Below, in pieces: positions 988 through 22,942 of a stretch of DNA of 37,707 bases (position 1 is its first letter; every line of letters starts with the position of its first letter). The translations under genes were made by a program, and so were the position numbers. The DNA comes from a virus, in the IMG/VR virus record IMGVR_UViG_3300045988_025481, positions 1 to 37,707 of that record, one strand, 5' to 3'. Under the pieces are notes generated by a model. That model ran no database searches, was not told where the DNA came from, and saw nothing but the letters and a program-made list of their open reading frames with translations.

Positions 988-2730
988 TTATTTAAATAGT
1001 TTCGAAACCTTTTTTAATATTTTTAAAATCAAAGCGATAATACGATTGATTCCATTTACATTAATTTTATCATTTGAATCGCTTGTATCGTTTGAATCAT
1101 CTTTTTTAGGATTGCTCAACTCATCTAAATATTGTGATACTAATAATTTAAAATCATCCCAACCTTCATCAAGAATCTTGTGTGGGCAATATTTATAATT
1201 ACCACTTGTCATCTTGTAATCTTGGTGCTTTTTTAAGCAATCAATACTCAATCCATATTTATACAATAGCTCAGATGCAAGTCTTGCTCCATTCTCTCTA
1301 GCTTTTTTCCATTCATCTTGTGAATCGTTATCATTATCCTTGGCGATTTCGATTTGGATACCTGTTCTATTACCAAATCCATATGCTCCATCACCTGTTG
1401 CAAATGCATTACGATTCAATGGTAATGATTCGATGATGTCTTTATCATCCACCGAGAAATGCCAAGATTTATATTCCTTCGAATTGTGCAATGCATTATT
1501 TAAAGCTCTAGCAGTTCCATTTGGTGTTGCCGAGTTATGGATGATAATCGCTTGAGGTTTATTCATTAAATAAGGGCATTTGTAAGGATACAATCTCTTA
1601 TTAATTAAATCAACGATAATACCGTCATGTTCAAGAACTTCATCAGTTTTATCCTTTCCTTCGTAATCTCCTTCATTAACCGATGTAAATCCATTTGTAT
1701 TTACAATGGGTTTCGAAGGGGTTGTGGGTGTTTCGGTAGGTGTTGTCGTTGGCTTTGAGTCGTTCGGAGCAGTAAATGTTGCCCACATTTGCGTTCTATC
1801 CTCTGTTGCAGATACGGCAACGAATACTTTTTTATCTCCGTCTTTGCCTACTACATATCTGTGCCCATTTCCTACATACTTCCAATAATAGCGAATTGAA
1901 TCACCAGTGTTGTATGTTTTGCAAACATCACCTTTTGGCGAATCGTAACGTGCTCTCACACCGTCTACCGTGAATGTAGCGATACCATCTTCTTGTGTTA
2001 GGGTAATTGATTCGGTAGGTTTTTGTTCTTCAATAGAAGTAAATGTTGCCCACGGTTCTGTACCTTGCTCATTTCCATTCACTGCCACGAAATAACGATA
2101 GCTTGCACCATCTGCTTGATGTTCAACCCATGAAATATATCTGTGCCCATTTCCTACATATTTTTGCGTGTATTCTAGCTTTGCCCCTTTTTTCAATGTT
2201 TCTGCTACGATTCCATTTGGTGTATCTCTTCTTTTCTGAATGTCATACATTAATGTAGCATAAGCGTGTTCATCTATTAATTTAGATTCTATATAATCGC
2301 TATTTTGAGTTTGATTTACTAAACATTTAGGTCTAAAGCCTGTATCATATGTGGCACTGTATGGAAATTTACATAAATTAAATGCTCCTCCTGCACCACC
2401 TTGATTTTGTCCTAAGAACCAACCATATTTTCCATCAATATCAGAATCAAAAATTGCAATATGCGAATATGGTGTAACTCCTGGCACTACTTTGAACACG
2501 ACAATATCACCGGGTTGATATACAGATACTTCAACACTGTTTTCCAAGATTCCATTTGTCTTTCTGTATAGCCAAATGTCTTTAGCGTATTTACTGACTG
2601 TACAACTAATTCTTGGGTATCCTAGTTTCTCATACCAATACATTGCACCATCCCAACATTGAGGGCCGTAAGCTCCATCAATGTCAATTCTTTTGCCTAA
2701 TACATCGTTTTTAAAACTTTGATAATCTAT
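988..2730 (-). CDS. endolysin: CHAP peptidase, two SH3b-like repeats, Thr/Pro linker, Amidase_2 (N-acetylmuramoyl-L-alanine amidase), cationic amphipathic C-terminal helix
   Basis: ORF 988..2643 extended in frame to ATA 2730..2728 (GGAGG plus 9 nt). The CHAP catalytic motif GAYGPQCWD lies upstream of the first ATG, and the CHAP His is in YSHIAIF. Repeats carry KYVGNGHRY...WATFT twice. Amidase_2 motifs are IIIHNSAT...WHFSVDD...GIQIEIA...YCPHK. Confidence 0.85.
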   Translation of the reverse strand: MDYQSFKNDVLGKRIDIDGAYGPQCWDGAMYWYEKLGYPRISCTVSKYAKDIWLYRKTNGILENSVEVSVYQPGDIVVFKVVPGVTPYSHIAIFDSDIDGKYGWFLGQNQGGAGGAFNLCKFPYSATYDTGFRPKCLVNQTQNSDYIESKLIDEHAYATLMYDIQKRRDTPNGIVAETLKKGAKLEYTQKYVGNGHRYISWVEHQADGASYRYFVAVNGNEQGTEPWATFTSIEEQKPTESITLTQEDGIATFTVDGVRARYDSPKGDVCKTYNTGDSIRYYWKYVGNGHRYVVGKDGDKKVFVAVSATEDRTQMWATFTAPNDSKPTTTPTETPTTPSKPIVNTNGFTSVNEGDYEGKDKTDEVLEHDGIIVDLINKRLYPYKCPYLMNKPQAIIIHNSATPNGTARALNNALHNSKEYKSWHFSVDDKDIIESLPLNRNAFATGDGAYGFGNRTGIQIEIAKDNDNDSQDEWKKARENGARLASELLYKYGLSIDCLKKHQDYKMTSGNYKYCPHKILDEGWDDFKLLVSQYLDELSNPKKDDSNDTSDSNDKINVNGINRIIALILKILKKVSKLFK

Positions 2731-2777
2731 TAAAAAAAACCTCCTTTATATGCCAATTATAGCACATAAAAGAGGTT
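2730..2777 (-). terminator. 16-bp stem terminator hairpin plus T8; its 3' arm contains the endolysin SD and its loop contains TGCTATAAT
   Basis: Minus strand reads AACCTCTTTTATGTGC-TATAATTG-GCATATAAAGGAGGTT-TTTTTTTA. It starts 6 nt after the stop of gene 2783..3220. Confidence 0.6.
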
Positions 2778-2782
2778 TTTTA

Positions 2783-3220
2783 TCACTGATATACAGAGAA
2801 CATTTCTCTTAATTTATCTCTTACCATTTCTCTTTCTTCTTGAAAGTCGCTAGACGTTTTCATTTCTTCTAAGATTCCATACATAGCACTTAAAAAGGCT
2901 TCTAACTCACGAATTGAATTTTGTTTATCTAGTTCATTGTTGCCTTTTCGATATTCTTTTTTAGCTTCTATGTATTTCCTAAAATGAGAATTCATTAATG
3001 CGATATTATCATCAATTTCCGTTCCTTCAATATTTGTATCATTTGTTTTTAATGCGTTTATAGCAGTTCTTCCATCACTCATAGCTAGTATTGTATCAAT
3101 GTCTTTGATATTGTCTAAAGCTTGGCTCATGACTTTAAAATCTAAATCATTGTATCCTCTTTCTAATCCTCTCATCGCTTCCGTTAAGAGGTCTAGATTT
3201 CTTTTTCTAACCTCTTGCAT
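2783..3220 (-). CDS. hypothetical helical protein
   Basis: 145-aa ORF; TAGGTG lies 5 nt upstream of the ATG. Confidence 0.55.
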   Translation of the reverse strand: MQEVRKRNLDLLTEAMRGLERGYNDLDFKVMSQALDNIKDIDTILAMSDGRTAINALKTNDTNIEGTEIDDNIALMNSHFRKYIEAKKEYRKGNNELDKQNSIRELEAFLSAMYGILEEMKTSSDFQEEREMVRDKLREMFSVYQ

Positions 3221-3227
3221 GATACAC

Positions 3228-3647
3228 CTACGCTAACTTCTTAATGATGATATTTGCATTTTGAACAGATAAATCTAAGCCACTATTATTACCTAGCGTA
3301 ATTGTGTAAGACGCACCACAAGGTACTTGAATCAATGTAACTCCACTTACATTTCCATATGCGCTTGCAGTAGCTACATTATATAGAGATTCTGTTCCTC
3401 CTACTGCTTCTCCATTCTGTTCTAATTCTAAAGAAGCAACTCCTACCGTTGTGCTTGTGATGTCTGCCGTATATTCTACTTCATAGATTCCTTGTTTCGT
3501 TAATGTAAACAGCCCACTTCCTACATCATGAGCGAGCCAACCTTTACATGCACATTGGCATGATTTTGTTCTTACTCTGTCTGTTGGGAATAATACATTT
3601 TGTCCATTTGCTACTGTCTGAATTGCCGTTGCTATACTATTAATCAT
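3228..3647 (-). CDS. hypothetical beta-rich protein, possibly a BclA-C-terminal/C1q-like jelly roll (weak)
   Basis: 139-aa ORF with TAGGAGGAAAAGAAA upstream of the ATG. The alternating beta-strand pattern and CQCAC motif resemble that fold from memory only. Confidence 0.5.
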   Translation of the reverse strand: MINSIATAIQTVANGQNVLFPTDRVRTKSCQCACKGWLAHDVGSGLFTLTKQGIYEVEYTADITSTTVGVASLELEQNGEAVGGTESLYNVATASAYGNVSGVTLIQVPCGASYTITLGNNSGLDLSVQNANIIIKKLA

Positions 3648-3660
3648 TTTCTTTTCCTCC

Positions 3661-3694
3661 TATATAAAATAAATGGGTAGCCTTTCGACTACCC
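3661..3694 (-). terminator. terminator-like hairpin
   Basis: Minus strand reads GGGTAG-TCGAAAGG-CTACCC followed by ATTTATTTTAT. Confidence 0.4.
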
Positions 3695-3729
3695 TATAAT
3701 CCAAAGGCTATTGCCTAATCTCTTTCGAG

Positions 3730-4341: not shown

Positions 4342-4365
4342 TTATATTTCCTCCTTTCAACGCAA

Positions 4366-4575
4366 TTAGCGTTTTAGCCCATATTGACTAGCCACATTTT
4401 CAAATTGTTGTTTTTGTTGTGGCGTTAAATTCCCCATCATATTATTCAATAATACTTTGGGATTCTGTCCACTTTGCATTAATTGTTGTACTTGATTAAA
4501 TGCTTGTGGATTTCTTTGTTGTAACATACCCAACAACATTTGTTGAGGGTTCATCATATTCATTAAAGGATTCAC
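4366..4575 (-). CDS. Q/M/N-rich small protein
   Basis: 69-aa ORF with a GTG start after AAGGAGC plus 7 nt. GTGA overlaps the upstream stop. Confidence 0.5.
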   Translation of the reverse strand: MNPLMNMMNPQQMLLGMLQQRNPQAFNQVQQLMQSGQNPKVLLNNMMGNLTPQQKQQFENVASQYGLKR

Positions 4576-5073: not shown

Positions 5074-5101
5074 CCAAAAAAAAGAGGTTTTTCAACCTCT
5101 T
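5074..5101 (-). terminator. rho-independent terminator (bidirectional shape)
   Basis: Minus strand reads AAGAGGTT-GAAA-AACCTCTT followed by T8. It overlaps the stop of gene 5100..5384. Confidence 0.7.
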
Positions 5102-5384
5102 AATTCTTGTCTAGATACGTTTCTTTTTCACTGCTTTTTCTTGGTGGTAAAACTGCGCTATACTTTTCTACTTCATCATACTTGTTCTTTATTCTTTTGA
5201 TGATTCTATTCACACTAGAAACACTCATATTTAATCTGTCGGCTTGTTCTCTGACTGTCCATCCGTATATTCTTGTTCTTAGAATCATTTCTTCATCTTT
5301 AGTTAATAAAGCTAGATTAATAAATTCTTCAAGAATAATCTTATTCCAAGGTACTTGATTCGTCATTGTCTTGTTCTTCGTCAA
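5100..5384 (-). CDS. sigma-70 region-4-like HTH regulator
   Basis: 94-aa ORF. EEMILRTRIYGWTVREQADRLNMSVSSVNRIIKRIKNKY resembles a region-4 HTH. It overlaps the holin 3' end by 44 nt. Confidence 0.5.
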   Translation of the reverse strand: MTKNKTMTNQVPWNKIILEEFINLALLTKDEEMILRTRIYGWTVREQADRLNMSVSSVNRIIKRIKNKYDEVEKYSAVLPPRKSSEKETYLDKN

Positions 5385-5856
5385 TAAGTTTATCTGCTAC
5401 TTCTAATCCTTTAGTTAATACTTTTGGTACATTGTAACCACATTGTAATAAATTCTCCATAACGCTACGAGATTCATTAATACATAGCGAAGCTAACACA
5501 AACCAACCTAGCAATGTAGACACATGGAAATCAATCCCTAGAATTTCTCCTACTTCTACTAAAAATGCACTGAATGTGAACGCAACCACAATCATAATCC
5601 AATAGCCTAGCTTTTTTAAAACACCGGTCCAACCTTTGTTGCTATTGATTTTATGAGCAATAGCCGACTTCATGCACCCTGTAATATAATCCACTACATT
5701 CATAAATAAGAAGAACGCAAATAAATACCAATGCTCGCCTAATACGTATGTTAATACGGCTACGGCAACACCACACATTGCATTAATCTTATCTAGAAAA
5801 AACATACTTCTTGCTATTTGCTTAAATCCTCCATTTTTATTTTCTATTAAATTCAC
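5341..5856 (-). CDS. holin (TcdE/phage_holin_4-type, toxin secretion/phage lysis family)
   Basis: Multi-TM ORF with DYITG...KK...INESRSVMEN motifs typical of that family. GTG 5856 sits inside the SD; ATA 5847 lies 8 nt after GGAG and is the better-placed start. Confidence 0.75.
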   Translation of the reverse strand: MNLIENKNGGFKQIARSMFFLDKINAMCGVAVAVLTYVLGEHWYLFAFFLFMNVVDYITGCMKSAIAHKINSNKGWTGVLKKLGYWIMIVVAFTFSAFLVEVGEILGIDFHVSTLLGWFVLASLCINESRSVMENLLQCGYNVPKVLTKGLEVADKLIDEEQDNDESSTLE

Positions 5857-6874: not shown

Positions 6875-7747
6875 CTATATACCTAAATACCTTTCGTTGT
6901 AGTAAACAGTGCAAGCTAGGTTCGTATCTCCATTATCTGCCGTATATCCTATGATATTCTCACCTAAATTAATAGTCATATCATTGAATGATGAAGTTCT
7001 ATCAACTTTGCCAATACAATTCACGCCATTCTTCTTTATTGAAATAGGTTCAGAAACTAAATCGATTTCTAATACATCACCATTGTGTAACGTATCTAAT
7101 ACACGAATATATTTATCTTTATTGAATAGTTTCGGATTTGTCACATCTCCAAATGCTTCAATGACGGCCCTGCAATATGTTTCTGTATCACCTTGATTAT
7201 CAATATAAATTTCTCTAGCGAATGTGAATGTTCCAAAGTTTACGCCTGTTTCCGGTATTTCGAAATTAAATGCTAAACCACCGCCGATTTCTGCAATATT
7301 CTTTGCAAAATCATCAAATGAAAGTAATAAAGGTTGCGTGCATAGAATCGTAAAATTAAGCTCTAAATCTTTGTAGATGTTAACAGTAGGCAAGCTATAC
7401 GCATATAAACGACCTCTGCAATACTTCTTTTCTCCCATGTACTCAACTATCACATCAAATACATGAGAATATTGGAAGAAGCGCCGTAGCTTCTCCCTTT
7501 CTTCTCTTTTTTCTTCTAGTGAACCTTTAAAGATAGCTTTCACGCTTCTTTCTTTCGTTGGAATACGTGAACCGATTAATCTAGCACCATTTCCAAATGC
7601 GTTGTCTTGCGTAGTGTATGAAGGTGCTACATAATCAAATCCATCTAAGCCATCATTTGAAGGAATCCTCCATCTTTTTTGGTTGTCAATTTCAAATTCT
7701 GTGCCATCATCCCTACGGACAATAACTCTTACTTTATTGATGTCTAT
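6875..7747 (-). CDS. distal tail protein (Dit)
   Basis: ORF 6875..7543 extends 68 codons upstream with no ATG/GTG/TTG, to ATA 7747..7745 (GGAGG plus 9 nt). The ATA overlaps the TMP stop as ATAG. Position directly after the TMP supports the call. Confidence 0.75.
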   Translation of the reverse strand: MDINKVRVIVRRDDGTEFEIDNQKRWRIPSNDGLDGFDYVAPSYTTQDNAFGNGARLIGSRIPTKERSVKAIFKGSLEEKREEREKLRRFFQYSHVFDVIVEYMGEKKYCRGRLYAYSLPTVNIYKDLELNFTILCTQPLLLSFDDFAKNIAEIGGGLAFNFEIPETGVNFGTFTFAREIYIDNQGDTETYCRAVIEAFGDVTNPKLFNKDKYIRVLDTLHNGDVLEIDLVSEPISIKKNGVNCIGKVDRTSSFNDMTINLGENIIGYTADNGDTNLACTVYYNERYLGI

Positions 7748-10323
7748 TGAATTACACCTCCATATCCATATCTTGCTTGCATACGTAACATTCTAGCGAT
7801 TTCATCCGGACTTTGAGCTTTATTGTAGAAGTTGATAGTCTGTCCATTGTTATTCGTTGTAACACTAGGCATAATTTGGACCATATCTTTTGCTACGGCA
7901 CGAATCCACGCTTTATTCTTTTCTAAAGGAACGACTGCTTCTGCTCCATTACCTTCTAACAATCCAATTTGACCGCGTTTCAATACACCACCACGCTCTA
8001 GTTTTGGAATCTTTCCAATGCTAACTCCGGGAATCTTATTGATGATACTGATTGCACCATTAATTCCACCGATAACACCATTTACCATTCCTTTTACACT
8101 TCCAACTAATGATTGCACTGCTCCTTCAATTCCATTGAATACACCATCTACAAAGCCTTTTAAACCGCTCCATGCATTCTGTATTCCATGTAGAACATTT
8201 GAAATCTTATTTCCTACTTTATCCATCACGATTTTTACTTTTGACCACACATCGTCAAATACATTTGAAATAGTATCTTTTACACCTGCGAAGCTAGAAT
8301 CAATTATATCAATCACATTTTGTACAATATTTCCAATATTATCGAATACACCTTTGATAACATTCCATATGCTTTCAAATATGCTTGAAATTGACTGGAA
8401 TAAACCACTTGCAAATTGAATGATTGCAGATACTACCTCACTTATCTTGCCCCAAATATTCGTTGCAACAGTTACGATTAAAGACCAAATATTAGATATG
8501 ATAGATGCAATGATTTGAACAATCGGCATGATGATAGACAATATTGTAGAAATTGCACTTCCAACATATGAAATCACCATACTAATGAACGAAATGATTC
8601 CACTTACAACACTTCCAACTATCGAAAGAATAGATGTGATTACAGGAATTAATCCAACTATGTTTGAAATCACCATCTTTATAATCGCTAGGATAGGTGG
8701 ACCAACCACGCTCAGAATCTTTTGTGCTTGGTTTACGATATTTTGAATAGCTTCAATAATCTTAGCTAATATATCTTTTGCAATAGGTTCAAGTGCAATC
8801 TTCATTTTGTCGATTGCGTCTTTTACCTTATCAAAAGCAGGAGCTAACACTTCAGAAACTTGGCTTGTGATTTTTGTGATTCCACTTGTATCAATCTTAC
8901 TTAATACATTTGAAATTACATCACCAACTTTAGCAAATCCTTGTTGAATACCTTGTATCGCTACTGTAATTAGTCCAATAATACCGGAAAGAATAGGAGT
9001 AATCGCTTCGCCTATTGGAGTAAATGAGTTTAAGAATGTACGCCCTAAGCCACTTAAAGCGTTCTTTAAACCACCATTTGCAATATCTTTAACCTTTTCC
9101 ATTGCTCCTTGTACATCTTTATATTTATTCCCTACTGTCGTTAAGGACTGAATGAATCCGGCGTTGAAATCTTCTCCCATTGTACCGAAAGCCGTTGCAG
9201 ATTTATTCAATTTTTCTTGTTCATTTGTAGTCTTTGAAATATCTTCTACAATCGCATTCACAACATCTTTTTGAGTTGCTCTTCCTTCTTGCCATGCCTT
9301 AAATACATCTTGTGTTTTGGTATCAAAACTATCTAAAGCTCCTTCAATAGTTCCATCAACTAACCTTGTGGTAACTTCGTTAATTGCGTCATTTACTTTG
9401 TCAAGGTTATAAGCTCCACCGTCTAAACCATTCTGCATTAATTGGAAGTATTCTTCTGCCGAATATCCTGCTTGCTTGAATTTACCGGAGTATTCTGAAA
9501 TGTTGTCGCCTAACTCATCTGATTTGTTTAAACCATTCTGAGCACCTGTAGCCATAAGGTCGAAAGCTTCTTGAGAAGTAATTCCGAACTGCTTCATTAA
9601 TTGTTGAGCACCTCTAAGAGTTTCGTTTTCGTCCATACCGAATGTGTCTCTTAATGTCAATAAATCCTCAGTTACATTCTTTAAATCAACATCACTTATG
9701 CCTTGCATTTGTTGCTTGACTCTGCCCATCATATCGGCAACATCTGAAACATCTTCACCGAAATTATTAGACCAAACATCACGAGCAATGCTTTTAAATT
9801 TGCTCATTTCATTGCTTGAAGCACCTGTTTGAGCTTGGAATTTAGCCATAGCGTCATCTAGCTCAACGGCTTGGTTAACACCTGTCTTAATTGCTAATGC
9901 CATCCCACCGATAGCTCCTGCTACGGCAGTAACGCCTACAACACCTCCAACGCCTAAACCTGTTAAGGTTTCAGTGATTGCAGAAGCTTCCGGACTAATA
10001 TTCTGAATCTTTCCTAATAGTCCATCAAATCCACCTTGAATTGATTCTAATGCACTGTTTCCTACTTGCTTAAATACATCAAATTTAGAACCTGTTTCTT
10101 GTGTTTCTGTTTGTGTATTTCTTTGCTCTTCGTTTAAATCTTTAAGTTTATCTTTAATCTTTGGCGGTGCTTTTGAACCATCAGAACCTAGCTTATCAAT
10201 CGCTTTTGAAGTATCTTTGATAGCATTTGTGGCTTCACTTGATACAACCTTTACAGATTTAATTCCATTCTCTAGACCACTTGTATCAATCTTTGTATCA
10301 AACTTTAATGTTCCGTCTGATAT
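7744..10323 (-). CDS. tape measure protein
   Basis: ORF 7744..9903 extends 140 codons upstream in frame with no canonical start. The first codon after an in-frame TGA is ATA 10323..10321, with AAAGGAGGTG upstream. Long helical/hydrophobic repeats are typical of TMPs. Confidence 0.85.
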   Translation of the reverse strand: MSDGTLKFDTKIDTSGLENGIKSVKVVSSEATNAIKDTSKAIDKLGSDGSKAPPKIKDKLKDLNEEQRNTQTETQETGSKFDVFKQVGNSALESIQGGFDGLLGKIQNISPEASAITETLTGLGVGGVVGVTAVAGAIGGMALAIKTGVNQAVELDDAMAKFQAQTGASSNEMSKFKSIARDVWSNNFGEDVSDVADMMGRVKQQMQGISDVDLKNVTEDLLTLRDTFGMDENETLRGAQQLMKQFGITSQEAFDLMATGAQNGLNKSDELGDNISEYSGKFKQAGYSAEEYFQLMQNGLDGGAYNLDKVNDAINEVTTRLVDGTIEGALDSFDTKTQDVFKAWQEGRATQKDVVNAIVEDISKTTNEQEKLNKSATAFGTMGEDFNAGFIQSLTTVGNKYKDVQGAMEKVKDIANGGLKNALSGLGRTFLNSFTPIGEAITPILSGIIGLITVAIQGIQQGFAKVGDVISNVLSKIDTSGITKITSQVSEVLAPAFDKVKDAIDKMKIALEPIAKDILAKIIEAIQNIVNQAQKILSVVGPPILAIIKMVISNIVGLIPVITSILSIVGSVVSGIISFISMVISYVGSAISTILSIIMPIVQIIASIISNIWSLIVTVATNIWGKISEVVSAIIQFASGLFQSISSIFESIWNVIKGVFDNIGNIVQNVIDIIDSSFAGVKDTISNVFDDVWSKVKIVMDKVGNKISNVLHGIQNAWSGLKGFVDGVFNGIEGAVQSLVGSVKGMVNGVIGGINGAISIINKIPGVSIGKIPKLERGGVLKRGQIGLLEGNGAEAVVPLEKNKAWIRAVAKDMVQIMPSVTTNNNGQTINFYNKAQSPDEIARMLRMQARYGYGGVIQ

Positions 10324-10343: not shown

Positions 10344-10907
10344 CTAAACATCAAAATATGAATCAAATTCATCTTTCATTTCTTGTTCCTCTATTGTTAA
10401 TTCAATTGGGAAAGACCACGCTTCTTTTGCTCTTTGATATGCTTTATCTTGTGTATCATTTTTTGAAGTTTTTTCATATCCTCTAACAATCTTTGCATAT
10501 CCCCACAATGTAGAATCACCAACGATATTATTCGCCAATGCTAAGAACTTATGCCAATGCATATCACATTCTGTTAAATCAATGCCGTAAAGTTGCATAA
10601 AAGCCGAATAAATATATTCCCCATCTTGCACATAGTCTAAAGTCTTAACGCCTGTAGAATCACTTCTAGGCGTACTAGAAGGGTTATATAAGAATCGTTC
10701 TAGCTCTTTTAAAATATGCCCATCTATGATAGGTGGTTCATATACAAATAAATAAGAACAATCTACTTCATCAATAACATGATTGTTGAATCGTTCTAAT
10801 TCTTCATAGAATCTTATCCACAAACGAAAATCTGTATTTAATAAAATAGGCTCGCCATCTAGCGATTGTATGCTATTTGGCAAGCCTTTTGTCCGTAAAT
10901 CAATCAT
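10344..10907 (-). CDS. tail assembly protein (Gp15-like), tentative
   Basis: 187-aa ORF between the chaperone-like gene and the TMP. ATGA overlaps the upstream stop. Confidence 0.5.
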   Translation of the reverse strand: MIDLRTKGLPNSIQSLDGEPILLNTDFRLWIRFYEELERFNNHVIDEVDCSYLFVYEPPIIDGHILKELERFLYNPSSTPRSDSTGVKTLDYVQDGEYIYSAFMQLYGIDLTECDMHWHKFLALANNIVGDSTLWGYAKIVRGYEKTSKNDTQDKAYQRAKEAWSFPIELTIEEQEMKDEFDSYFDV

Positions 10908-11284: not shown

Positions 11285-11791
11285 TTATACTTCTGATGTA
11301 CCTTCTGTAAATGTTACTGTTCCATCTGCTACCTTTGCAGTACCGACACGAATATCGCTTGCAAAGTTAATATTGAAGTTGATTTTTGAATCGACACCGC
11401 TTAATGTGTCAAAAATCAATTTAGCGTCAACTTCCCACGCTTTATAGCCTTTAGTTTTGTCTCCGTCAAACATAAATACAAGTAAAGCTTTTGTATTTAC
11501 TTCTTCATTGTTTGGTACGGATTTCATCATTTGTTCGTAAATGTATTCAAAGTCATCTTCACCTTTAATCATAGTCAAATCCTGTGAGATTTGAGGTGAA
11601 TAACTCTTTAATGATTCTGTTGGGTTCTTATCTGCGATAAAGTCATATGTTTCAGTTTCGCTATTAAATGCAATATCTAAAGTTGTAGACTTTTTAATTC
11701 GCTTGTATCCTGTTCCCATTTGTAAGAACAATCCAATCATATACTTTTTGACTGTCTGTCCTGTATTTACTTCAGTTCCTTGAGTTGCTAT
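11285..11791 (-). CDS. major tail protein
   Basis: ORF 11285..11740 extends 17 codons to ATA 11791..11789 (AAGGAGC plus 8 nt; TAATA overlap with the upstream stop). ATG 11740 has no SD. Position supports the call. Confidence 0.65.
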   Translation of the reverse strand: MATQGTEVNTGQTVKKYMIGLFLQMGTGYKRIKKSTTLDIAFNSETETYDFIADKNPTESLKSYSPQISQDLTMIKGEDDFEYIYEQMMKSVPNNEEVNTKALLVFMFDGDKTKGYKAWEVDAKLIFDTLSGVDSKINFNINFASDIRVGTAKVADGTVTFTEGTSEV

Positions 11792-12210
11792 TAATTAAGC
11801 TCCTTTCTGTATTTAATTTGAATAGTCAATGCATATACTGCTTGATTATCCTCATTTGTGTATAGATATAAACCACTTGAAACGGAAACATCCTCACAAT
11901 GTCTGTTTCCGTCTAGTTGTGGTAATTCTCCGCTTAAATTCTTTTCGTCAATCCAATTTTCTAATTCTTCTAGAAAAACATTGTTATCTTGTCTTTCTGG
12001 TTCAATTTGTGTATTCCTACGTGCTAGAAACGTGTAGTATTCAGTACGCATTTGAGAACCATCAATGTATGTATTTACAATTGCGTTAGGTTCTTTATAC
12101 AATGCATAAGAGATAGCTTGTTGCGCTAAAACATCCGTTTCAATACGTTCATCTATCTGTATATTTCCGTAGCCATAAAGCCACTGAATCAACGCTTTTG
12201 ATACTGTCAT
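11791..12210 (-). CDS. tail completion/terminator-type head-tail protein
   Basis: 139-aa ORF in the head-tail joining block. ATGA overlap with TAGGAGACGG upstream. Confidence 0.5.
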   Translation of the reverse strand: MTVSKALIQWLYGYGNIQIDERIETDVLAQQAISYALYKEPNAIVNTYIDGSQMRTEYYTFLARRNTQIEPERQDNNVFLEELENWIDEKNLSGELPQLDGNRHCEDVSVSSGLYLYTNEDNQAVYALTIQIKYRKELN

Positions 12211-12581
12211 TTTCCGTCTCCTATCATTTGTTGTGTCATTTGTTGTGCTTTCTTCAAGATTGCTTCTGCTCCGCCATTTCGCATAGCTTTGTCAAACCAA
12301 TGGTCTGTTTTACCACCAACGAAATGAGCACCCTCTTTGTTGTAATACCAACGTCTAGCATAAGGAGCACTTGGTCCACCTTGCTTTACTAATCCACTAC
12401 CGATTTGAGTATTTCTTGTAGCCGAGTTAATCAATGCTCCTGTGTCTCTCGGCGTATATGGGGCCATAAGCCTAATGACTTCAGAATCAATCATTTGTTG
12501 AACTTGTCCACGTTCTTCAAGTCCTCTTGATTGCTTAATTTGGGGAATTGATTCAACATCAAGTTTAACTTTGATACCTAT
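12207..12581 (-). CDS. HK97 gp10-like head-tail protein
   Basis: Frame of ORF 12207..12653. ATA 12581..12579 follows GGGAGG by 10 nt and overlaps the upstream stop as ATAG. ATG 12653 would overlap the upstream gene by 75 nt and has no SD. Confidence 0.55.
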   Translation of the reverse strand: MGIKVKLDVESIPQIKQSRGLEERGQVQQMIDSEVIRLMAPYTPRDTGALINSATRNTQIGSGLVKQGGPSAPYARRWYYNKEGAHFVGGKTDHWFDKAMRNGGAEAILKKAQQMTQQMIGDGK

Positions 12582-13361: not shown

Positions 13362-13463
13362 CTATTTTTCATTTTGAGGTTTAGCTTCCTCTTTTGTTTT
13401 AGGTTTTCCTTTTTTAGGCTTTTCAACTTTAGAAGGATAACCCCAACCGATTTCCTTTGCCAT
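13362..13463 (-). CDS. 33-aa lysine-rich peptide (MAKEIGWGYPSKVEKPKKGKPKTKEEAKPQNEK)
   Basis: Hand-translated. TAATG overlaps the capsid gene stop. Confidence 0.35.
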   Translation of the reverse strand: MAKEIGWGYPSKVEKPKKGKPKTKEEAKPQNEK

Positions 13464-14332
13464 TACTTAGCACTAGCAGATAAATAAATACCTGCTACCT
13501 TATTTGCGTATACATCAACGATTCCATACTTACGATATTTCAAAACATCTGAATCTGATTCAATGTTATTGCTTGCGGGAATCACATTTGAAACAGTGTG
13601 CTTATCCCATTTCATAACGGCAGGTTTATGAACAATTAAGAAGTTGATTACGTGTCCATCTTCTGCCTTTTCGTATCCACCTTCTAACTCTGTGTCTTTT
13701 CCGCTCAACAATTTGATTTTTGTATAGAAACGACTAGCAGGTACAGGAACAACTTTTGCGAATCCTTGTAAAGCTTCACGAGATTTGTAAGTGTCCAACG
13801 CCTTAACGCCATTTAATAATGTAGGTGTAGCATACAAGATACGTTGTTCGCTAGGAACTTCATCTTCATCCATTTTAGTAGTTGCCGTTAATAATGCGCT
13901 CAAGAACTCTTCTGAAGTTGTATAATCTTCGGCAACTGTTGTGATTCCTGTTGTGCCTGCAATCTTAGCGAATGTGTAAGCGTCTGCTTCCGGCGCAACC
14001 TTTGTACGCATTAATTCTGCTCCTGCCATACCGAATGCAATGTTCATTGATTCTGCGTTATCTTGTGTATCAACTGAGATTTTAGTACCTCGGTCATAGT
14101 CGAATGTAGCAGTTTTCCATTCTAACTTAACTGAGTTACCTGTATAACCACTGTTTCTATCGTAGTTTCCTAAACCTTTAACAGAAATTTGTGGATAGAT
14201 GATTTCTTTTGCGTTTGCTCCTGCTCGTACCATTGTAGCGTCTGCATTTAAATCACCTGTAACTGAAGCTAACTTATATACCTCATCCAAATTTGAGACA
14301 TACGTTTTAGCTAATGCAATTTCATTTGGTAT
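13463..14332 (-). CDS. major capsid protein
   Basis: ORF 13463..14290 extends 14 codons to ATA 14332..14330 (AAGGAGG plus 9 nt). The extension restores a typical ...Y.S.LDEVYK N-terminus. The gene follows the scaffold gene. Confidence 0.8.
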   Translation of the reverse strand: MPNEIALAKTYVSNLDEVYKLASVTGDLNADATMVRAGANAKEIIYPQISVKGLGNYDRNSGYTGNSVKLEWKTATFDYDRGTKISVDTQDNAESMNIAFGMAGAELMRTKVAPEADAYTFAKIAGTTGITTVAEDYTTSEEFLSALLTATTKMDEDEVPSEQRILYATPTLLNGVKALDTYKSREALQGFAKVVPVPASRFYTKIKLLSGKDTELEGGYEKAEDGHVINFLIVHKPAVMKWDKHTVSNVIPASNNIESDSDVLKYRKYGIVDVYANKVAGIYLSASAK

Positions 14333-17885: not shown

Positions 17886-18449
17886 CTAACCCCACATAGT
17901 ATTTAAATCATTTGTAGTAATCGCAGTTAATTCTGACTTCTTAACATACGCCGATAAATCAATGTCTGTATTACCAATCTTTTCGTATGTCTTTGTCTCT
18001 GAAAGCCAAATATACTCATCATAGATATCTTGTGTTCCATGTGAATGTGCTACCAAATAAATTACACCATTTGAACCTGTAGCAGGTAAGCTCGTTACCT
18101 TTTCATATCTAATAGATGCAATGTTTCCTACTGCCGAATTAATCAACGATTGTACTTGTGATTGCGTTTGGAATCCATTGTCATTTGTTAATTGTGATAC
18201 CTTTGTAGGCACTGTAACATCCACGGCTTTTGAGCTTGGCGTTAATTTCGTACCATTTACCTTTACAGATTCAATCACATTCACTTGAGCACCACTTGCG
18301 ATACCACTTAATTTTTGCTTTTCTTCGCTTGTGTAGTCATTTGTTGATAAGCCTTTACCACTTACGGCATCAACTTTCCCACCTAACGCCGTTTTAATCT
18401 TACTGATTAAGAGTGTCAATCCACTCTTATCTAAATATTCAATAGCTAT
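17886..18449 (-). CDS. tail-fibre-like protein
   Basis: ORF 17886..18419 extends 10 codons to ATA 18449..18447 (TAGGAGG plus 8 nt). GKGLSTNDYTSEEKQKL and SQLTNDNGFQT are typical fibre repeats. Confidence 0.6.
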   Translation of the reverse strand: MAIEYLDKSGLTLLISKIKTALGGKVDAVSGKGLSTNDYTSEEKQKLSGIASGAQVNVIESVKVNGTKLTPSSKAVDVTVPTKVSQLTNDNGFQTQSQVQSLINSAVGNIASIRYEKVTSLPATGSNGVIYLVAHSHGTQDIYDEYIWLSETKTYEKIGNTDIDLSAYVKKSELTAITTNDLNTMWG

Positions 18450-18761: not shown

Positions 18762-19057
18762 GTAATCACTTCCTTATTCAATACTCTATATACCTTTGTT
18801 GTCTTGACAGGAGAAGCAACAGCAACTCCTCCTTTTGTAATCATTCTTAATTGAATATTACAAGTACCCTCTTTGAAATTGAGCGTTTCTTCTTGACTTA
18901 ACAACACTGAAATAACATTTCCTTCAATGTCTAAATCACTTGATTCTTTTTTTAAGATATATCCGTTCTGTTCAAATACCACATAGATATTCTGCATTTC
19001 ATTTAAATCAATATCGTTTATTGTGATTTGAATTGTTGGCGTAGTTCCTTGTCTCAT
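18758..19057 (-). CDS. small structural-module protein
   Basis: ORF 18758..19078. The best start is ATG 19057 (AAGGTG plus 5 nt; ATGA overlap): MRQGTTPTIQITI... Confidence 0.5.
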   Translation of the reverse strand: MRQGTTPTIQITINDIDLNEMQNIYVVFEQNGYILKKESSDLDIEGNVISVLLSQEETLNFKEGTCNIQLRMITKGGVAVASPVKTTKVYRVLNKEVIT

Positions 19058-19863
19058 GATTTCACCTTGTAAGTCCAATCTTTGCCTACTTCACCCGACT
19101 CAACTTCATACGCCCAATCGGCTAGCATTTCATGACCGTTCTCATCTACCAGTGTTCCATCTTCTGTTAATAGAATCGTAGTGAAATGGTTATTCATAAG
19201 CATTTGTTCTACATTTGCAATTCGGTTCATTAACTTACCTGCGGTATTTGAATCCAACGTATCTTTTACGCTTGCGAACCATTCATTGAATTCATTTTCA
19301 TTTGCACTCATTTCAGATTGATTCTGCTCTTTTACTTCTTTGAATAATTCGGTCATTTGTGTAAATAAATCTAATGTTTCAACACTCTTTATGGCATTTG
19401 TAACTACTCCACAACGTGTTGAATCTAACCTTGTATCAGTGATGTTTGAGCCTTTGATTTCACTTGCGTTTCCTTCCACTGTTACCGTAGCTAATACCAT
19501 ATCATAAATAGAACCGCTTCTTGTGATTCCATCGTTGGTGTCGCTTGCTAATAAGGTAATGTTTCTATATGTGTCATTGTCATTCAATCTAAGAATAATA
19601 TTGTAGCTTTTAGTAGCGTTATTCTTTTCTAATGTGATGGTTTCGTCGTCTTTCTGCCAATAGAATGCTCCGTTAATATTTGCTCGTCCTGCCTTAACTG
19701 TAAGTGTTAAGCCTTGAGCCTTTTCAACTCTCAAATGGTCTGAACTAGAATCATCTATGAATACGCCATTTGTAAAGTAGCTTGAGAATAGCTTTCTGAA
19801 AGCGTCATATAAGACTAATCTATCACCATTTCGTGAGACAAATGGAAAATATGTAGTTGCTAT
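19054..19863 (-). CDS. fibre/baseplate-like structural protein
   Basis: ORF 19054..19734 extends 43 codons with no canonical start, to ATA 19863..19861 (GAGGGGGA plus 9 nt). The ATA overlaps the portal stop as ATAG. The FPFVSRNGDR...ITDTRLDSTRCGVV pattern resembles phage fibre proteins. Confidence 0.6.
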   Translation of the reverse strand: MATTYFPFVSRNGDRLVLYDAFRKLFSSYFTNGVFIDDSSSDHLRVEKAQGLTLTVKAGRANINGAFYWQKDDETITLEKNNATKSYNIILRLNDNDTYRNITLLASDTNDGITRSGSIYDMVLATVTVEGNASEIKGSNITDTRLDSTRCGVVTNAIKSVETLDLFTQMTELFKEVKEQNQSEMSANENEFNEWFASVKDTLDSNTAGKLMNRIANVEQMLMNNHFTTILLTEDGTLVDENGHEMLADWAYEVESGEVGKDWTYKVKS

Positions 19864-21263
19864 TCTTCGTCATCCCCCTCTCCATCATCTTGAATTTCTT
19901 CATTCAACAATTCCGTTGCTTCTTCTTCAGTGAAGCCGTATTGCTTCATGAAATACATAATCTTTAATCTTGGAATATCAAATGTTAATGCGTCATTTCT
20001 TAACGCTTGTGCCGTGCTTTGCTTATCCTCGATATATGTATCATCATAATCAATAGCAATATCTAATGAATTGATATTAAGCTTTCTGCCTTGTGTCAAT
20101 TCGTAGAAGTATGCAATAGCTTGAATAATGTCTTGAATATATGCAGTAGATTCTTTACGTTGTGAGTTTACTTCCTTCATAGCGTCTTGATTCTCACCAA
20201 TATATTCTGTAGCCGTCACAATTCTTCCACTTTCAAAGGTGTATTTCTTTGTACCAAATCCAAACATCATTGATAAGATACTTAATGCAGTTTCTAGTGA
20301 TTGCACAACTTCCGCCGTTCTTACTGTTGGATTGTATTCTTGCCATAAAGCTTTTTCTTCCGGAAGCTTGTCTCTACCTAACTGAACAAATATCTTTTTC
20401 ATTTGTGGATTCATCTTAATATTTCCATCCTTGTCTTTCTGCATTAATGCTTCATTCACAAGAACAATTTTATCAGACTTCAACAAATCACGATTCCACA
20501 TTGTCATTGTTAAATCAATTGTTTTCAAAGGAGCAATTGCACTCCAAATCTTCGGCAAGCCGTACCCTTGCATTTGTAAGTTGTTGACCTTTGCATTTCT
20601 CATAATTGCAAACGGCTTAACCACATCTAATTGAACTATCTGAGCACGCTCTTTTATTTCTTCGCCTGTATCTTTAAAGTAATGTGTTTCTGCAATATAT
20701 CTTTCGTCTTGTCCTTTTAAGAACATGACCATCACATATACTTTTTTCAACTTCTCATAATTTACTCCAACGAAAGCTACTTCCACAATTTCATCATTGA
20801 TAACAGTTAATGGAAGGATATTCATTGAATCACAATAGTTGATTCTTATTTCCCCTCCACTGAATGTACCATCTTCGTAAATCTCGGCATTTGATACCGT
20901 TACATAAGCTCCTACTGTACCGTTTGCAGACATTTGCTCAACTTGTTTCCTATACATTACATCAAACCTATTCTTCGTTAGAATGTCTGAAATAATATCA
21001 TTTGTTGTACTGTCCTCTGTTGCGTTTATATCTAGGATTTCAATAAGGTTTGCGTCATCCTCGCATAAACGCTTTGCAAAGTCTGTTTTATCTAGCGTGT
21101 ATTCCTCGTTGTTCAACGTGTATGCCGTATGAAATTCTGTTTCGGTATTCGTGTACCACTTATTACACAATTCAATAATCTCAATTGCGTTTGTGTCTAC
21201 ATAATACCCTCTGTCGTTTAGGTAATTCTGAAACCACGGTCTACGTGTGTTAGATGTTTCTAT
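19860..21263 (-). CDS. portal protein (SPP1 Gp6-like)
   Basis: ORF 19860..21170 extends 31 codons to ATA 21263..21261 (AAGGAGG plus 6 nt), two codons after an in-frame TAA. Its size and position after TerL support the call. Confidence 0.8.
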   Translation of the reverse strand: METSNTRRPWFQNYLNDRGYYVDTNAIEIIELCNKWYTNTETEFHTAYTLNNEEYTLDKTDFAKRLCEDDANLIEILDINATEDSTTNDIISDILTKNRFDVMYRKQVEQMSANGTVGAYVTVSNAEIYEDGTFSGGEIRINYCDSMNILPLTVINDEIVEVAFVGVNYEKLKKVYVMVMFLKGQDERYIAETHYFKDTGEEIKERAQIVQLDVVKPFAIMRNAKVNNLQMQGYGLPKIWSAIAPLKTIDLTMTMWNRDLLKSDKIVLVNEALMQKDKDGNIKMNPQMKKIFVQLGRDKLPEEKALWQEYNPTVRTAEVVQSLETALSILSMMFGFGTKKYTFESGRIVTATEYIGENQDAMKEVNSQRKESTAYIQDIIQAIAYFYELTQGRKLNINSLDIAIDYDDTYIEDKQSTAQALRNDALTFDIPRLKIMYFMKQYGFTEEEATELLNEEIQDDGEGDDEE

Positions 21264-21266
21264 TTC

Positions 21267-22604
21267 TTACCTCCTTAAATCTATATATCCACTATGGGTT
21301 ATAAATGTGTAGCAGAACGAATCCCAATCATCATTGATATTGTTTACGTTCTCATCTTTCGGAATGTCTTTCTTTTCATCCCATACCAATTCGCTCAATG
21401 CATTTATTAAGTTCTTACAATGTTCTTCTATCTTCAATCTACCTGTAACAAGTAAGCTATCAACTGTTATAGGACGGTCCGTTAGCTCATTCTTCTTAAC
21501 CGGTGCAATTATACTACCGTCCAATCCTTCGGCGTAGAAATAAGCTCTAAGCGTGTTTATGAGTGTGTTAGAAGCACTGTCCGGAAATATCCATTCTACA
21601 TATCCGTAACATTCAATACAACGCTTATAGAATCTTACAAATGCTTTGCAGAACTTTGTTGCGTATATGGAATTAGATTTAGCCATGTCTCCTTCATCAA
21701 GTGCCCACATATAATCCCAATCATTTGTAAACCCTGTTAAGTGCCATGAATATTTCGAGCCATTGTCTCCAAAATCAACGCCAATAATTAAATGACTGAA
21801 CCTTTTCCCTTCTTCCTTCATCTTTTCTTTTAGACTCTGATATTTGAATAGGTAAGGCTTGCAGTTATTGGCAAAATAAGGAAAGACTAGACCTTCGGCA
21901 ACCATTCTTTCCCCTAAAATATCTCGCTTGTACCATACTGAATTCTTGTCATATTTGTTTTGGATTTCTTCGATTCTTTCTTGGCTCATTGTAGCATTGT
22001 CAAAGATGTTGAAGTGCTCATATCTGTACCAATCTAACCCCATAAATTTATCTATGTAATTCTTATAGATGTCTGCGTTTGGGTTTGATGGGTTTAAATC
22101 CCATAATGTAAATGGATGTACACTTGCAATCTGTCTTGCCATCGCTACCTTGATAAAGCTTGTTCTAGAATCATCACAATCGTAATGCTCATTTATTTCG
22201 GTCGCTATCCATCCACCATATGAGTTACCTAATATGCTCTTATATGAATCGGACTTTCCACCGCCTGTAAATATAACTATCTTTTCGCCTGTCTTTGTTT
22301 GGACAAATAGTGCTTCGTTCGATTTGTATTTACCCCAACGACACCGCCCACGAAAGATATGTTCTAAGCCGAAACCATTGCAATCGCCTATGTTTAATTT
22401 CGCATTTGGTAAGCTTGACCCACTCGCTAAATGTATTTTATCTTCGCATGTTTCTAAATACATTGAAAAGATTATGCAGTGGTCAATCGTTTTGCCACTT
22501 CGTACCGCTCCTTCTGCTACACTTTGTTTGTAATTTAGGGCGGTCTTAATATAATTCTTATGTTTATCTGAAAATTTCCCCCAAGGAATCGTTCTAGTCA
22601 TCAT
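21267..22604 (-). CDS. terL: terminase large subunit
   Basis: 445-aa ORF with Walker A EGAVRSGKT, PBSX/Terminase_3-like. The ATG overlaps the TerS stop. Confidence 0.9.
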   Translation of the reverse strand: MMTRTIPWGKFSDKHKNYIKTALNYKQSVAEGAVRSGKTIDHCIIFSMYLETCEDKIHLASGSSLPNAKLNIGDCNGFGLEHIFRGRCRWGKYKSNEALFVQTKTGEKIVIFTGGGKSDSYKSILGNSYGGWIATEINEHYDCDDSRTSFIKVAMARQIASVHPFTLWDLNPSNPNADIYKNYIDKFMGLDWYRYEHFNIFDNATMSQERIEEIQNKYDKNSVWYKRDILGERMVAEGLVFPYFANNCKPYLFKYQSLKEKMKEEGKRFSHLIIGVDFGDNGSKYSWHLTGFTNDWDYMWALDEGDMAKSNSIYATKFCKAFVRFYKRCIECYGYVEWIFPDSASNTLINTLRAYFYAEGLDGSIIAPVKKNELTDRPITVDSLLVTGRLKIEEHCKNLINALSELVWDEKKDIPKDENVNNINDDWDSFCYTFITHSGYIDLRR

Positions 22605-22942
22605 TTTAATAAATCTGCCAAAGGTGTTAAGTCCTCAATCTCATGTGTCATTGTCTGCTCAACCTTTTCGCTCTGTCCAAGCATTTGTTTACCTAACCAA
22701 ATAAGCATGGTCGTATTCCCTTTTGACGCTTTGTCAAATTGCATACGTCTTAAACTTCTTTTTGAGTGGCTTATACCTTTTTTATATGTCTGACAAAACT
22801 TTCTATTTCTTAATAATGTTCTTACCGAACATCCTAGGAAATCTGCAATTTCTTCTTGAGTACATCCAATAGAAGCAAGCTTTTCAACTGCTTCATAATC
22901 AATCTTTATTCTTGGGCGTCCTCCTGCGTGTTTCTCTGCTAT
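22601..22942 (-). CDS. terS: terminase small subunit (HTH)
   Basis: Not in the ORF track. The frame is open from TAG 22957 to TGA 22601 and encodes (M)AEKHAGGRPRIKIDYEAVEKLASIGCTQEEIADFLGCSVRTL... The first ATG is 66 codons in. ATA 22942..22940 lies 6 nt after a G7 run. Confidence 0.7.
   Translation of the reverse strand: MAEKHAGGRPRIKIDYEAVEKLASIGCTQEEIADFLGCSVRTLLRNRKFCQTYKKGISHSKRSLRRMQFDKASKGNTTMLIWLGKQMLGQSEKVEQTMTHEIEDLTPLADLLK

Follow-up and report, generated by a model that had tools for sequence, protein, structure and literature searches.

The question raised by this locus is how a phage translates genes whose reading frames open, behind good Shine-Dalgarno (SD) sequences, with ATA. 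In the standard view, bacteria begin translation with a single initiator tRNA, which recognizes AUG, GUG or UUG. The stretch of DNA analyzed here (the window) comprises positions 1 to 37,707 of the IMG/VR virus record IMGVR_UViG_3300045988_025481, that is, 37,707 nucleotides (nt), and holds a nearly whole temperate siphovirus-like prophage with almost all genes on the minus strand. By our reading of the gene heads, ATA appears to open about a quarter of the prophage genes, the main virion and lysis genes included, and it is likely that the prophage encodes a second, phage-specific initiator tRNA, with anticodon UAU, that matches these AUA starts. The whole analysis is computational and proceeds by sequence comparison.

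ATA codons mark true gene starts

The first-pass annotation of the window had placed eleven ATA codons at the heads of minus-strand genes. All eleven are found there, each 6 to 11 nt after an SD-like motif, and the number of codons from the ATA to the first canonical start was reproduced for TerS, the portal, the post-portal gene, the 187-amino-acid (aa) protein, the major capsid, major tail, tape measure and distal tail proteins, and the endolysin. The relatives counted below come from a search of IMG/VR anchored on TerL, which returned 61 loci, about 39 of them belonging to the phage family of the window.

22601..22942, minus strand: small terminase TerS; ATA at 22942, first canonical start 66 codons on; ATA in 21 of 21 relatives.
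19860..21263, minus strand: portal protein; ATA at 21263, behind AAGGAGG at a spacing of 6, canonical start 31 codons on; ATA in 39 of 39 relatives.
19054..19863, minus strand: 269-aa protein downstream of the portal; ATA at 19863, canonical start 43 codons on; ATA in 39 of 39 relatives.
17886..18449, minus strand: 187-aa protein with no family match, earlier labeled 'fibre'; ATA at 18449, canonical start 10 codons on.
13463..14332, minus strand: major capsid protein (MCP); ATA at 14332, canonical start 14 codons on; ATA in 34 of 34 relatives.
12207..12581, minus strand: gp10-like, Minor_capsid_2-like protein; ATA at 12581; ATA in 32 of 32 relatives, with agreement of the homolog starts.
11285..11791, minus strand: putative major tail protein (MTP); ATA at 11791, canonical start 17 codons on.
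7744..10323, minus strand: tape measure protein (TMP); ATA at 10323, canonical start 140 codons on; ATA in 7 of 7 relatives.
6875..7747, minus strand: distal tail protein (Dit); ATA at 7747, canonical start 68 codons on; same start in the relative L197.
5341..5847, minus strand: holin; probable ATA at 5847, with a GTG at 5856 inside the SD; same context in L197.
988..2730, minus strand: endolysin (CHAP and Amidase_2); ATA at 2730, canonical start 29 codons on.

The portal is identified by homology to annotated portal proteins, with N-terminal homology in addition, and the TMP by a match to the PhageMin_Tail family; the 'fibre' labels proposed earlier for the genes at 19863 and 18449 find no support in any Pfam family. 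Homologs of TerS begin just ahead of a conserved GRP motif, and a weak helix-turn-helix (HTH) match at residues 17-47 lies, as had been suggested, upstream of the first ATG. For the gp10-like protein, the Pfam Minor_capsid_2 profile match begins at residue 3 of the ATA-started product. The endolysin domain begins before the first ATG, because Pfam CHAP matches the ATA-started protein over residues 19-105 and this ATG is residue 30; the QCW cysteine, as the same annotation had pointed out for the CHAP cysteine, is also upstream of it.

Those early and lysogeny genes that were checked at first had been described as having normal starts. The early region does have ATA starts, however, as three genes outside the late region have a probable or possible one:

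26546..26740, minus strand: 64-aa coiled-coil protein of the early/middle region; probable ATA at 26740 (AGGAGG, spacing 8, context A-ATA-G); ATA in 38 of 38 relatives.
30584..31315, minus strand: HTH_36 protein of the replication region; probable ATA at 31315; ATA in 14 of 14 relatives.
31317..31694, minus strand: RusA-like resolvase; possible ATA at 31694, behind a weaker SD (GGTG); ATA in 27 of 28 relatives.

The ATG of the HTH_36 homolog in L041 aligns exactly with the ATA at 31315, and coverage of the Pfam RusA profile favors the longer protein, started at 31694. Many late genes retain an ATG start, among them those for TerL, the scaffold, minor capsid protein 2 and several proteins of the tail.

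Comparison with related phages shows that the ATA codons mark true gene starts. In relatives that lack the tRNA, the homologous genes start with ATG at or near the ATA position: homologs of TerS, portal, gp10 and MTP in tRNA-less phages have a canonical start 0 to about 10 codons from the window ATA, and for the HTH_36 protein, too, such homologs start at the ATA or a few codons from it. The downstream canonical starts of the window are disfavored, because conserved N-terminal sequence of TerS, portal, gp10, MTP and the HTH_36 protein would be lost. MCP homologs that are about 69% identical have a length of 289-291 aa and an N terminus, MPNxIALAKNY, that aligns residue for residue with IPNEIALAKTY of the window.

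Moreover, about 40 independently assembled contigs keep ATA at the starts of the TerS, portal, post-portal, 187-aa, MCP, gp10, MTP and TMP genes, and the sub-lineage of L197 does the same. The possibility should be considered that the ATA codons are an artefact, due to sequencing or assembly error, to pseudogenes or to a different genetic code. Only the unusual look of the gene starts speaks for it, and the comparative data refute it: conservation of ATA at homologous starts in so many independent assemblies, obtained from different samples and by different pipelines, rules out sequencing error and runs counter to the possibility, named in the first annotation, that resequencing might reveal ATG at these positions. 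In addition, the frames are intact under code 11, and the protein sequence encoded ahead of the first canonical start is conserved.

Four genes have ATG in some family members and ATA in others, exactly at the start. For the 187-aa gene, ATA is found in 17 relatives and ATG in 4, at an identical position; the MTP gene has ATA in all relatives but one (L036, with ATG); the gene at 17635 has ATA in two relatives; and the gene at 4341 has ATA in L197. Such alternation is expected if the family can use either codon to start a gene.

When open reading frame (ORF) heads behind a strong SD were tallied by codon, the window gave 10 ATG, 10 ATA, 2 ATT and 0 ATC, and its phage family 228, 150, 19 and 0, respectively. 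Distant relatives without the tRNA have ATA at background level only (146 ATG, 13 ATA, 9 ATT and 9 ATC), and ATG-type relatives gave 24 ATG, 5 ATA, 6 ATT and 0 ATC. In the host, ATG opens all ten genes sampled. The motif GGAG-N3-11-AATAG occurs 11 times in the window, always on the coding strand and with the start at 26740 among the hits, against 3.2 +/- 2.0 expected, and the versions with ATT or ATC are as frequent as expected.

Translational coupling or re-initiation was considered as a general explanation and rejected, since the ATA starts of the endolysin, TMP and MCP genes follow real intergenic gaps. Two sets of apparent starts also had to be discarded. The 'TTA' start of the MTP gene in L014 and L016 is an alignment artefact, the codon being an ATA followed by a one-codon deletion, and the GTA and GAA 'starts' of TerL in a clade of 66% identity are artefacts of extrapolation; TerL of this clade probably starts at TTG.

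Because gene callers ignore ATA as a start, public gene calls of the phage family (P0001-P0004; L151, L157 and L197) are systematically truncated at the N terminus. The MCP is called with 275 or 256 aa instead of 289, the TMP with 719 instead of 859, Dit with 222 instead of 290 and the endolysin with 551 instead of 580, while the TerS gene is missed altogether. Homologs of the MCP number in the thousands; the three closest are called in truncated form, as is the representative of the closest MCP cluster (1224 member sequences). Initiation at ATA would thus explain the truncated annotation of the main structural genes in a very common gut prophage family. It also makes a prediction on the proteins themselves, whose N-terminal peptides would include [I/M]PNEIALAK, for the MCP, and [I/M]ATQGTEVNTGQTVK.

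A tRNA with anticodon UAU and an initiator-type body

The question then arises as to which tRNA could read these starts. The first-pass annotation had noticed a phage tRNA with a UAU anticodon, and the Rfam match shows this tRNA to be real:

26121..26196, minus strand: initiator-type tRNA, anticodon UAU, with encoded CCA (Rfam RF00005, 48 bits, at 26124-26196 on the minus strand; CCA down to 26121).

ARAGORN reported no tRNA in the whole window, nor in the isolated 76-nt tRNA sequence, likely because of a bulged T-stem and odd D- and T-loops. The acceptor end has an A1xA72 mismatch followed by G2:C71 and C3:G70, and terminates in A73-CCA. The D-stem has A11:U24, the variable loop is AGGUC, and the T-loop UGCAAUU is carried by a stem with a bulged U. 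The anticodon stem CUAGU/GCUAG (A29:U41, G30:C40, U31:G39) bears the loop CUUAUUA, with U34 and U37.

This tRNA is present in 32 of the 32 family loci that reach far enough upstream, and the anticodon is UAU in all 83 loci that were found to have it. When 12 distinct tRNA sequences were aligned, G2:C71, C3:G70, A73 and A11:U24 were invariant. Positions 1 and 72 are paired in no variant, the window and most lineages having A1xA72, and the L174/L179 lineage C1xA72. The anticodon-stem pairs 29:41/30:40/31:39 read A:U/G:C/U:G in the major variant and G:C/G:C/U:G in minor variants, so that G30:C40 is invariant and the only one of the three G:C pairs that is always present. Across the 12 sequences the cloverleaf is 98.8% paired, and 8 pairs show compensatory double changes, against at most 1 in slid controls. 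The anticodon stem has three such double changes and its loop never varies; compensatory stem changes around a constant loop indicate that the tRNA is under selection.

A 1x72 mismatch, G2:C71 and C3:G70 together with A73, and the three G:C pairs of the anticodon stem (3GC) are known initiator or formyltransferase determinants (PMC5389676), and so is, for initiators, a purine 11 paired with a pyrimidine 24 (PMC9976931). Within 3GC, G30:C40 is the essential and sufficient pair, and an au/GC/gu stem, as found in some mycoplasmas, sustains E. coli (PMC5389676). The au/GC/ug stem of the phage tRNA resembles these working au/GC/gu variants among the mycoplasma and rhizobial initiators that have fewer than three G:C pairs in the anticodon stem (PMC5389676). 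With bacterial tRNA-fMet the phage tRNA shares the 1x72 mismatch, G2:C71, C3:G70, R11:Y24, G30:C40, A73 and, at best, 82% identity to the Holdemanella initiator. It differs in having UAU and not CAU, U37 and not A37, U31:G39 and not G:C, and, in most lineages, A1 and not C1. The elbow deviates as well, the gene lies in a phage whose host has a normal initiator of its own, and by known rules the tRNA is not a substrate of methionyl-tRNA synthetase. Strictly speaking, it is therefore no tRNA-fMet, and only its body is initiator-like.

Identity to the host initiator tRNA, which has C1xA72 and a GGG/CCC anticodon stem, ranges from 74% (major variant) to 82% (minor variant), compared with 54-64% for other host tRNAs and 61% for an elongator tRNA-Ile(UAU) of sister phages. 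The minor-variant arm GUCGGU-CUUAUUA-GCCGA departs from the canonical initiator arm GUCGGG-CUCAUAA-CCCGA at four positions only (31, 34, 37 and 39).

IMG/VR was scanned with the D-arm of the tRNA, leaving the anticodon free. Some 45 unrelated contigs from many environments (L071-L149; for example L134, L127, L088, L081 and L072) carry the same odd scaffold, with a D-arm GAGC-AGUAGUA-GCUC devoid of G18G19 and a T-loop UGCRAWU in which G55 stands for U55. The loop of these tRNAs is CUCAUAA in all cases, positions 1 and 72 are mostly mismatched (often AxA), and G30:C40 is always present; together they seem to form a separate family of initiator-like tRNA(CAU) carried by phages, with an altered elbow. 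In this D-arm scan the UAU anticodon was found on the scaffold in the Holdemanella-phage family only. A looser scan and a metagenome scan brought up two further tRNA bodies (L171/L178 and L174/L179), which have the identical arm UUGGU-CUUAUUA-GCCAA; the body of L174/L179 has the classic C1xA72, the other has canonical D- and T-loops, and both co-occur with ATA starts. L179 is far from the window (61% identity for the portal, 54% for the MCP, and a different TerS family), and its TerS, portal and MCP genes open with A-ATA-G right after the upstream stop. A UAU initiator-type tRNA thus co-occurs with ATA starts in three lineages.

Could the tRNA nevertheless be an ordinary codon-compensation elongator tRNA-Ile(UAU), serving an AT-rich phage, and the ATA starts be read inefficiently by the host fMet-tRNA(CAU) with the help of strong SDs, for instance to throttle expression? 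Internal ATA codons are indeed about 2.5 times commoner in the phage than in the host sample (14 versus 5.5 per 1000). The host itself presumably decodes AUA with a CAU-type tRNA (MetB below), probably lysidine-modified, an assumption that we base on E. coli ileX. Sister phages offer a natural control here: L152 and L154 (positions 3362-3436) have, at the same genomic position as the window tRNA, between the early genes and TerS, a true elongator tRNA-Ile(UAU), which is detected by ARAGORN and has a paired 1:72, U11:A24 and A37. No ATA-dependent genes were found in these sister phages, and their MCP starts with ATG. More generally, elongator tRNA-Ile(UAU) of phages and of some Firmicutes (lactic acid bacteria; references 44 and 45 in PMC9976931) shares the AUA-cognate anticodon, and is otherwise unlike the window tRNA, since it has a paired 1:72, Y11:R24 and A37, and its phages have canonical starts. 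The window tRNA, with its mismatched 1:72, its A11:U24 and U37, and its descent from an initiator, resembles such elongators in the anticodon alone. A 1x72 mismatch is what bars the E. coli initiator tRNA from elongation (Seong & RajBhandary 1987, as cited in PMC9976931). Furthermore, ATA opens the genes of the most abundantly needed proteins (MCP and MTP), for which throttling makes little sense. In E. coli, an ATG to ATA change lowers rpoS expression (PMC12864459). Together with the start-specific match described next, this makes the elongator explanation quite improbable in our view.

The base at -1 is A in 14 of the 14 ATA-start genes and is invariant across relatives. By comparison, A is found at -1 in about 17 of the 36 canonical starts of the phage, where the base drifts between relatives (Fisher p = 3e-4 versus ATA starts), and at 61 of the 149 internal ATA codons (Fisher p = 9e-6). 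U37 of the tRNA, a position at which initiators have A37, is complementary to this A. The match fits a role in initiation, because it is absent from internal ATA codons, which have no -1 bias and at which no such pairing would be expected. Quadruplet pairing between position 37 and base -1 has been shown in E. coli, including with an engineered A37U initiator variant, which favors the complementary base at -1 (PMC10018350). In that system the effect is modest and involves A37 with U(-1), whereas the phage has the inverted pair U37/A(-1), invariant at 14 starts, which suggests that A-AUA may be a near-obligatory four-base start signal.

Proposed mechanism, tRNA expression and purpose

We propose that the ancestor was a host-like bacterial initiator tRNA whose anticodon would have changed from CAU to UAU, and that at least 11, and probably 14, phage genes would have switched from ATG to ATA to match it. 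The formyltransferase determinants in the acceptor stem and D-stem are kept, the 1x72 mismatch would keep the tRNA out of elongation, and G30:C40, as part of 3GC, would permit its passage into the 70S initiation complex. Retention of the initiator determinants, of the 1x72 mismatch and of G30:C40 leads us to expect that the tRNA, presumably formylated and delivered by initiation factor IF2, would reach the P-site directly. It would then read a four-base site, A-AUA: the codon AUA through pairing with U34-A35-U36, and the preceding A (-1) through pairing with U37. We infer that the UAU tRNA is what initiates at ATA; the idea of a phage-encoded alternative initiator tRNA, already put forward in the first-pass annotation, gains support from the initiator determinants, the likeness to the host initiator, the U37/A(-1) match, the recurrence in other lineages and the elongator-tRNA controls.

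Methionyl-tRNA synthetase requires C34 and should reject the UAU anticodon. Charging with isoleucine is most likely, judging from the anticodon, and the isoleucyl-tRNA synthetase (IleRS) of a lactic acid bacterium accepts UAU (references in PMC9976931). If so, the prophage would possess a natural orthogonal initiation channel, in which a second initiator tRNA brings a non-methionine residue, probably (formyl-)isoleucine, to A-AUA, a proposal towards which we lean slightly. Major virion and lysis proteins of an abundant gut prophage family would then begin with a non-methionine residue, and their synthesis would be uncoupled from host fMet-tRNA.

Several observations weigh against the initiator reading or limit its reach. 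Of the three G:C pairs canonical for the anticodon stem, the major variant lacks two, and 31:39 is U:G in all variants but one. The elbow is unusual, with a 7-nt D-loop lacking GG, G55 replacing U55 and a bulged T-stem. Since t6A37 is a strong determinant for bacterial IleRS (PMC9976931) and U37 removes it, efficient charging with isoleucine is not assured. The higher frequency of internal ATA codons in the phage than in the small host sample makes an elongation role for the tRNA possible. As to sampling, the host start codons (ATG in 10 of 10 genes) come from ten genes, and a single virus catalogue is the source of most relatives, which are not mutually independent. Finally, the base at +4 is G in 11 of the 14 ATA starts, versus 6 of 36 canonical starts (mostly A) and 50 of 149 internal ATA codons, a strong preference that the proposed mechanism leaves unexplained. 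The starts concerned are as follows:

ATA with G at +4: 22942, 21263, 19863, 18449, 12581, 11791, 7747, 5847, 2730, 26740 and 31315, all on the minus strand.

Pairing of this G with U33 or C32 of the tRNA was considered and rejected as structurally implausible, owing to the U-turn and to the kink between P-site and A-site codons.

The gene for the tRNA lies between the early and the late module, and is framed by the following elements:

26214..26237, minus strand: intrinsic-terminator-like hairpin, GTGCTCAC-AAT-GTGAGCA followed by a T-run, kept in all relatives.
26203..26211, minus strand: candidate extended -10 promoter, TGtAATAAT, ending 7 nt before A1 of the tRNA.
26020..26038, minus strand: terminator-like hairpin downstream of the tRNA, from a hairpin scan.

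The first hairpin overlaps the stop codon of ORF 26223-26549, just ahead of the tRNA. The extended -10 element was identified by eye and by conservation, TGnRATAAT being conserved in all A1-type lineages; a sigma-70 promoter scan listed nothing directly upstream of the tRNA, because the element has no -35 box. The C1-type lineage does not have this arrangement, and shows a TATAAT box further upstream instead. This organization suggests that the tRNA may form a stand-alone transcription unit starting at its mature 5' end. It may thus be a primary transcript needing no RNase P cleavage at that end, which might be why position 1 is A and not C.

What such a channel would be for is a separate question, and two scenarios are considered that share the mechanism proposed above. 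The tRNA could act as a translational timer or lysogeny safety lock, structural and lysis proteins having to await its accumulation and leaky late transcripts remaining silent. This tentative scenario, close to the 'late switch' of the first-pass annotation, is favored by the distribution of the ATA starts, 11 of 14 of which are in packaging, virion and lysis genes (holin and endolysin included), by the place of the tRNA gene, and by the parallel with phage stop-codon recoding of late and lysis genes (10.1101/2021.08.26.457843). However, three probable ATA starts belong to early or replication genes, and TerL and the other late genes named above keep ATG. In addition, the apparent promoter, of sigma-A type, might be constitutive, and an extended -10 element that apparently serves the tRNA alone, right behind a terminator, gives no clue to when the tRNA is made.

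In the other scenario, to which we give a comparably low probability, the purpose would be counter-defence or host shut-off: the altered anticodon loop would allow the tRNA to escape VapC-type host nucleases, the phage could go on translating with host initiation disabled, and the ATA starts would be a co-evolved consequence. The anticodon stem-loop is where VapC toxins cleave initiator tRNA, and changes of the anticodon loop that evade such nucleases are frequent in phage tRNAs (PMC10264068). The clustering of the derived changes at 31, 34, 37 and 39, the existence of a wider family of phage-borne initiator-like tRNA(CAU) and the presence of ATA starts outside the late genes all agree with it. 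On the other hand, no initiator-targeting nuclease was identified in host or phage, and most phage genes use ATG, GTG or TTG and would thus stay vulnerable, unless U34 wobble-reads AUG. Escape from a nuclease or from host shut-off is a rationale equally as good as a late switch, and the more general idea of the earlier annotation, an initiation route insulated from the host, is plausible.

Several known systems resemble the proposed channel in part. Engineered initiators, made by changing the anticodon, start translation at matching non-AUG codons (PMC11744186), and capsid genes of phiX174 have been made dependent on an amber initiator tRNA(CUA) (bioRxiv 10.1101/2024.07.29.605542). As is proposed for the phage, an initiator body with a changed anticodon starts translation at the matching codon; those systems, however, are man-made and their tRNA is supplied by the host strain, whereas the present one would be natural and phage-carried, with a sense codon (AUA) and an evolved -1 base. 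Stop-codon recoding in phages (bioRxiv 10.1101/2021.08.26.457843; PMC9523058) has in common with it a gut-phage tRNA that alters codon reading, a concentration of the affected codons in late, structural and lysis genes, and mis-annotation by standard gene callers. Recoding alters termination and elongation, TAG or TGA being read as an amino acid, whereas the UAU tRNA would alter initiation. The window itself gives no sign of stop-codon recoding: read with code 11, its ORFs are unbroken and densely packed, and its sole tRNA has a sense anticodon.

Animal mitochondria are a further case. They have a single tRNA-Met, with f5C34, which reads AUG and AUA in both initiation and elongation. AUA is there a genuine start codon, as in the phage (PMC11775629), but it is read by one modified CAU tRNA, and not by a dedicated UAU initiator beside a normal CAU initiator. 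Lastly, initiation by the host initiator tRNA at AUU, as in infC, or occasionally at AUA is sporadic, restricted to single genes, of low efficiency and without a dedicated tRNA, in contrast with 11 to 14 ATA genes in 38 kb, the major structural genes among them, no enrichment of ATT or ATC, and a dedicated cognate tRNA.

We found no earlier description of a natural, dedicated non-CAU initiator tRNA with reassigned starts in open-access papers and bioRxiv. If true, it would be the first natural case of a start codon reassigned through a mobile element, would mirror, at the level of initiation, the recoding of stop codons in phages, and would imply that viruses alter initiation as well as termination. 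It would also offer a natural experiment on which initiator features are required (G30:C40 alone, the 1x72 mismatch, an altered elbow) and on 37/-1 quadruplet pairing, as well as an orthogonal initiator/start-codon pair, hitherto obtained by engineering only, for synthetic biology and phage biocontainment. It raises the questions of how formyltransferase, deformylase, IF2 and IF3 handle a non-methionine initiator, and of whether the channel serves timing, lysogeny safety or escape from initiator-targeting nucleases.

The prophage, its host and neighboring genes

The window is part of a 44.7-kb human-gut metagenome scaffold (ENA ERZ28576195, scaffold_600), the ends of which supply host flanks. 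SseB, TldD/PmbA, NanE and a tRNA cluster lie on one side, and a CCA-adding enzyme on the other. The latter clusters at 90% identity or more with proteins of Holdemanella porci, from which we assign the host to Holdemanella (family Erysipelotrichaceae). Integration occurred between the host SseB and CCA-adding enzyme genes:

L196 4669-4711, L158 about 12000-12130 and L157 about 10870-10900: att/integration region, with the 13-bp att core TTCTTATATAATA.

In L196 the attachment site (attB) is empty, SseB being followed directly by the CCA-enzyme gene. One relative, L163, is integrated elsewhere, beside a methyltransferase gene and rplQ.

The host tRNA cluster (L158 16480-17113) has the order Arg-Pro-Met(CAU)-Met(CAU)-Ser-Met(CAU)-Phe. 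The third Met gene (MetC) is the initiator tRNA and lies 5 kb outside the prophage. By their resemblance to E. coli sequences, we take MetA to be an elongator tRNA-Met and MetB a lysidine-type tRNA-Ile2. Metagenome assemblies consistently break at this cluster: a search for more host DNA through the integrase brought no gain, every contig being broken there, and a homolog search with the host SseB returned short contigs only, which nonetheless gave the empty attB and five further host genes.

Relatives of the prophage among cultured phages are distant. The late region had no megablast match among GenBank phages, and in a protein search the cultured relatives reached 29% identity at most.

In the slot between the early genes and TerS, the related phage L153 has a different tRNA-like sequence (about 3360-3430), and the slot seems to be a hot spot for the exchange of tRNA cargo. 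In the window, the interval between the tRNA and TerS (23087-25731, minus strand) encodes a ParB_N protein and a TET-associated glycosyltransferase (TAGT, PF20691), as well as a protein of 435 aa that weakly matches radical-SAM; these may together form a DNA-modification module. The tRNA system is independent of this module, since some relatives, such as L181, have the tRNA without it. Two small proteins with weak matches to sigma-70 region 4 or HTH domains, encoded at 26223-26549 (adjoining the tRNA, upstream) and 5100-5384, both on the minus strand, are candidates for a late-gene regulator. In the tail region of another related phage, L155, a group I intron (Rfam RF00028, 79.5 bits) was detected at 9687-9910, with HNH, NUMOD4 and GIY-YIG homing-endonuclease genes nearby.

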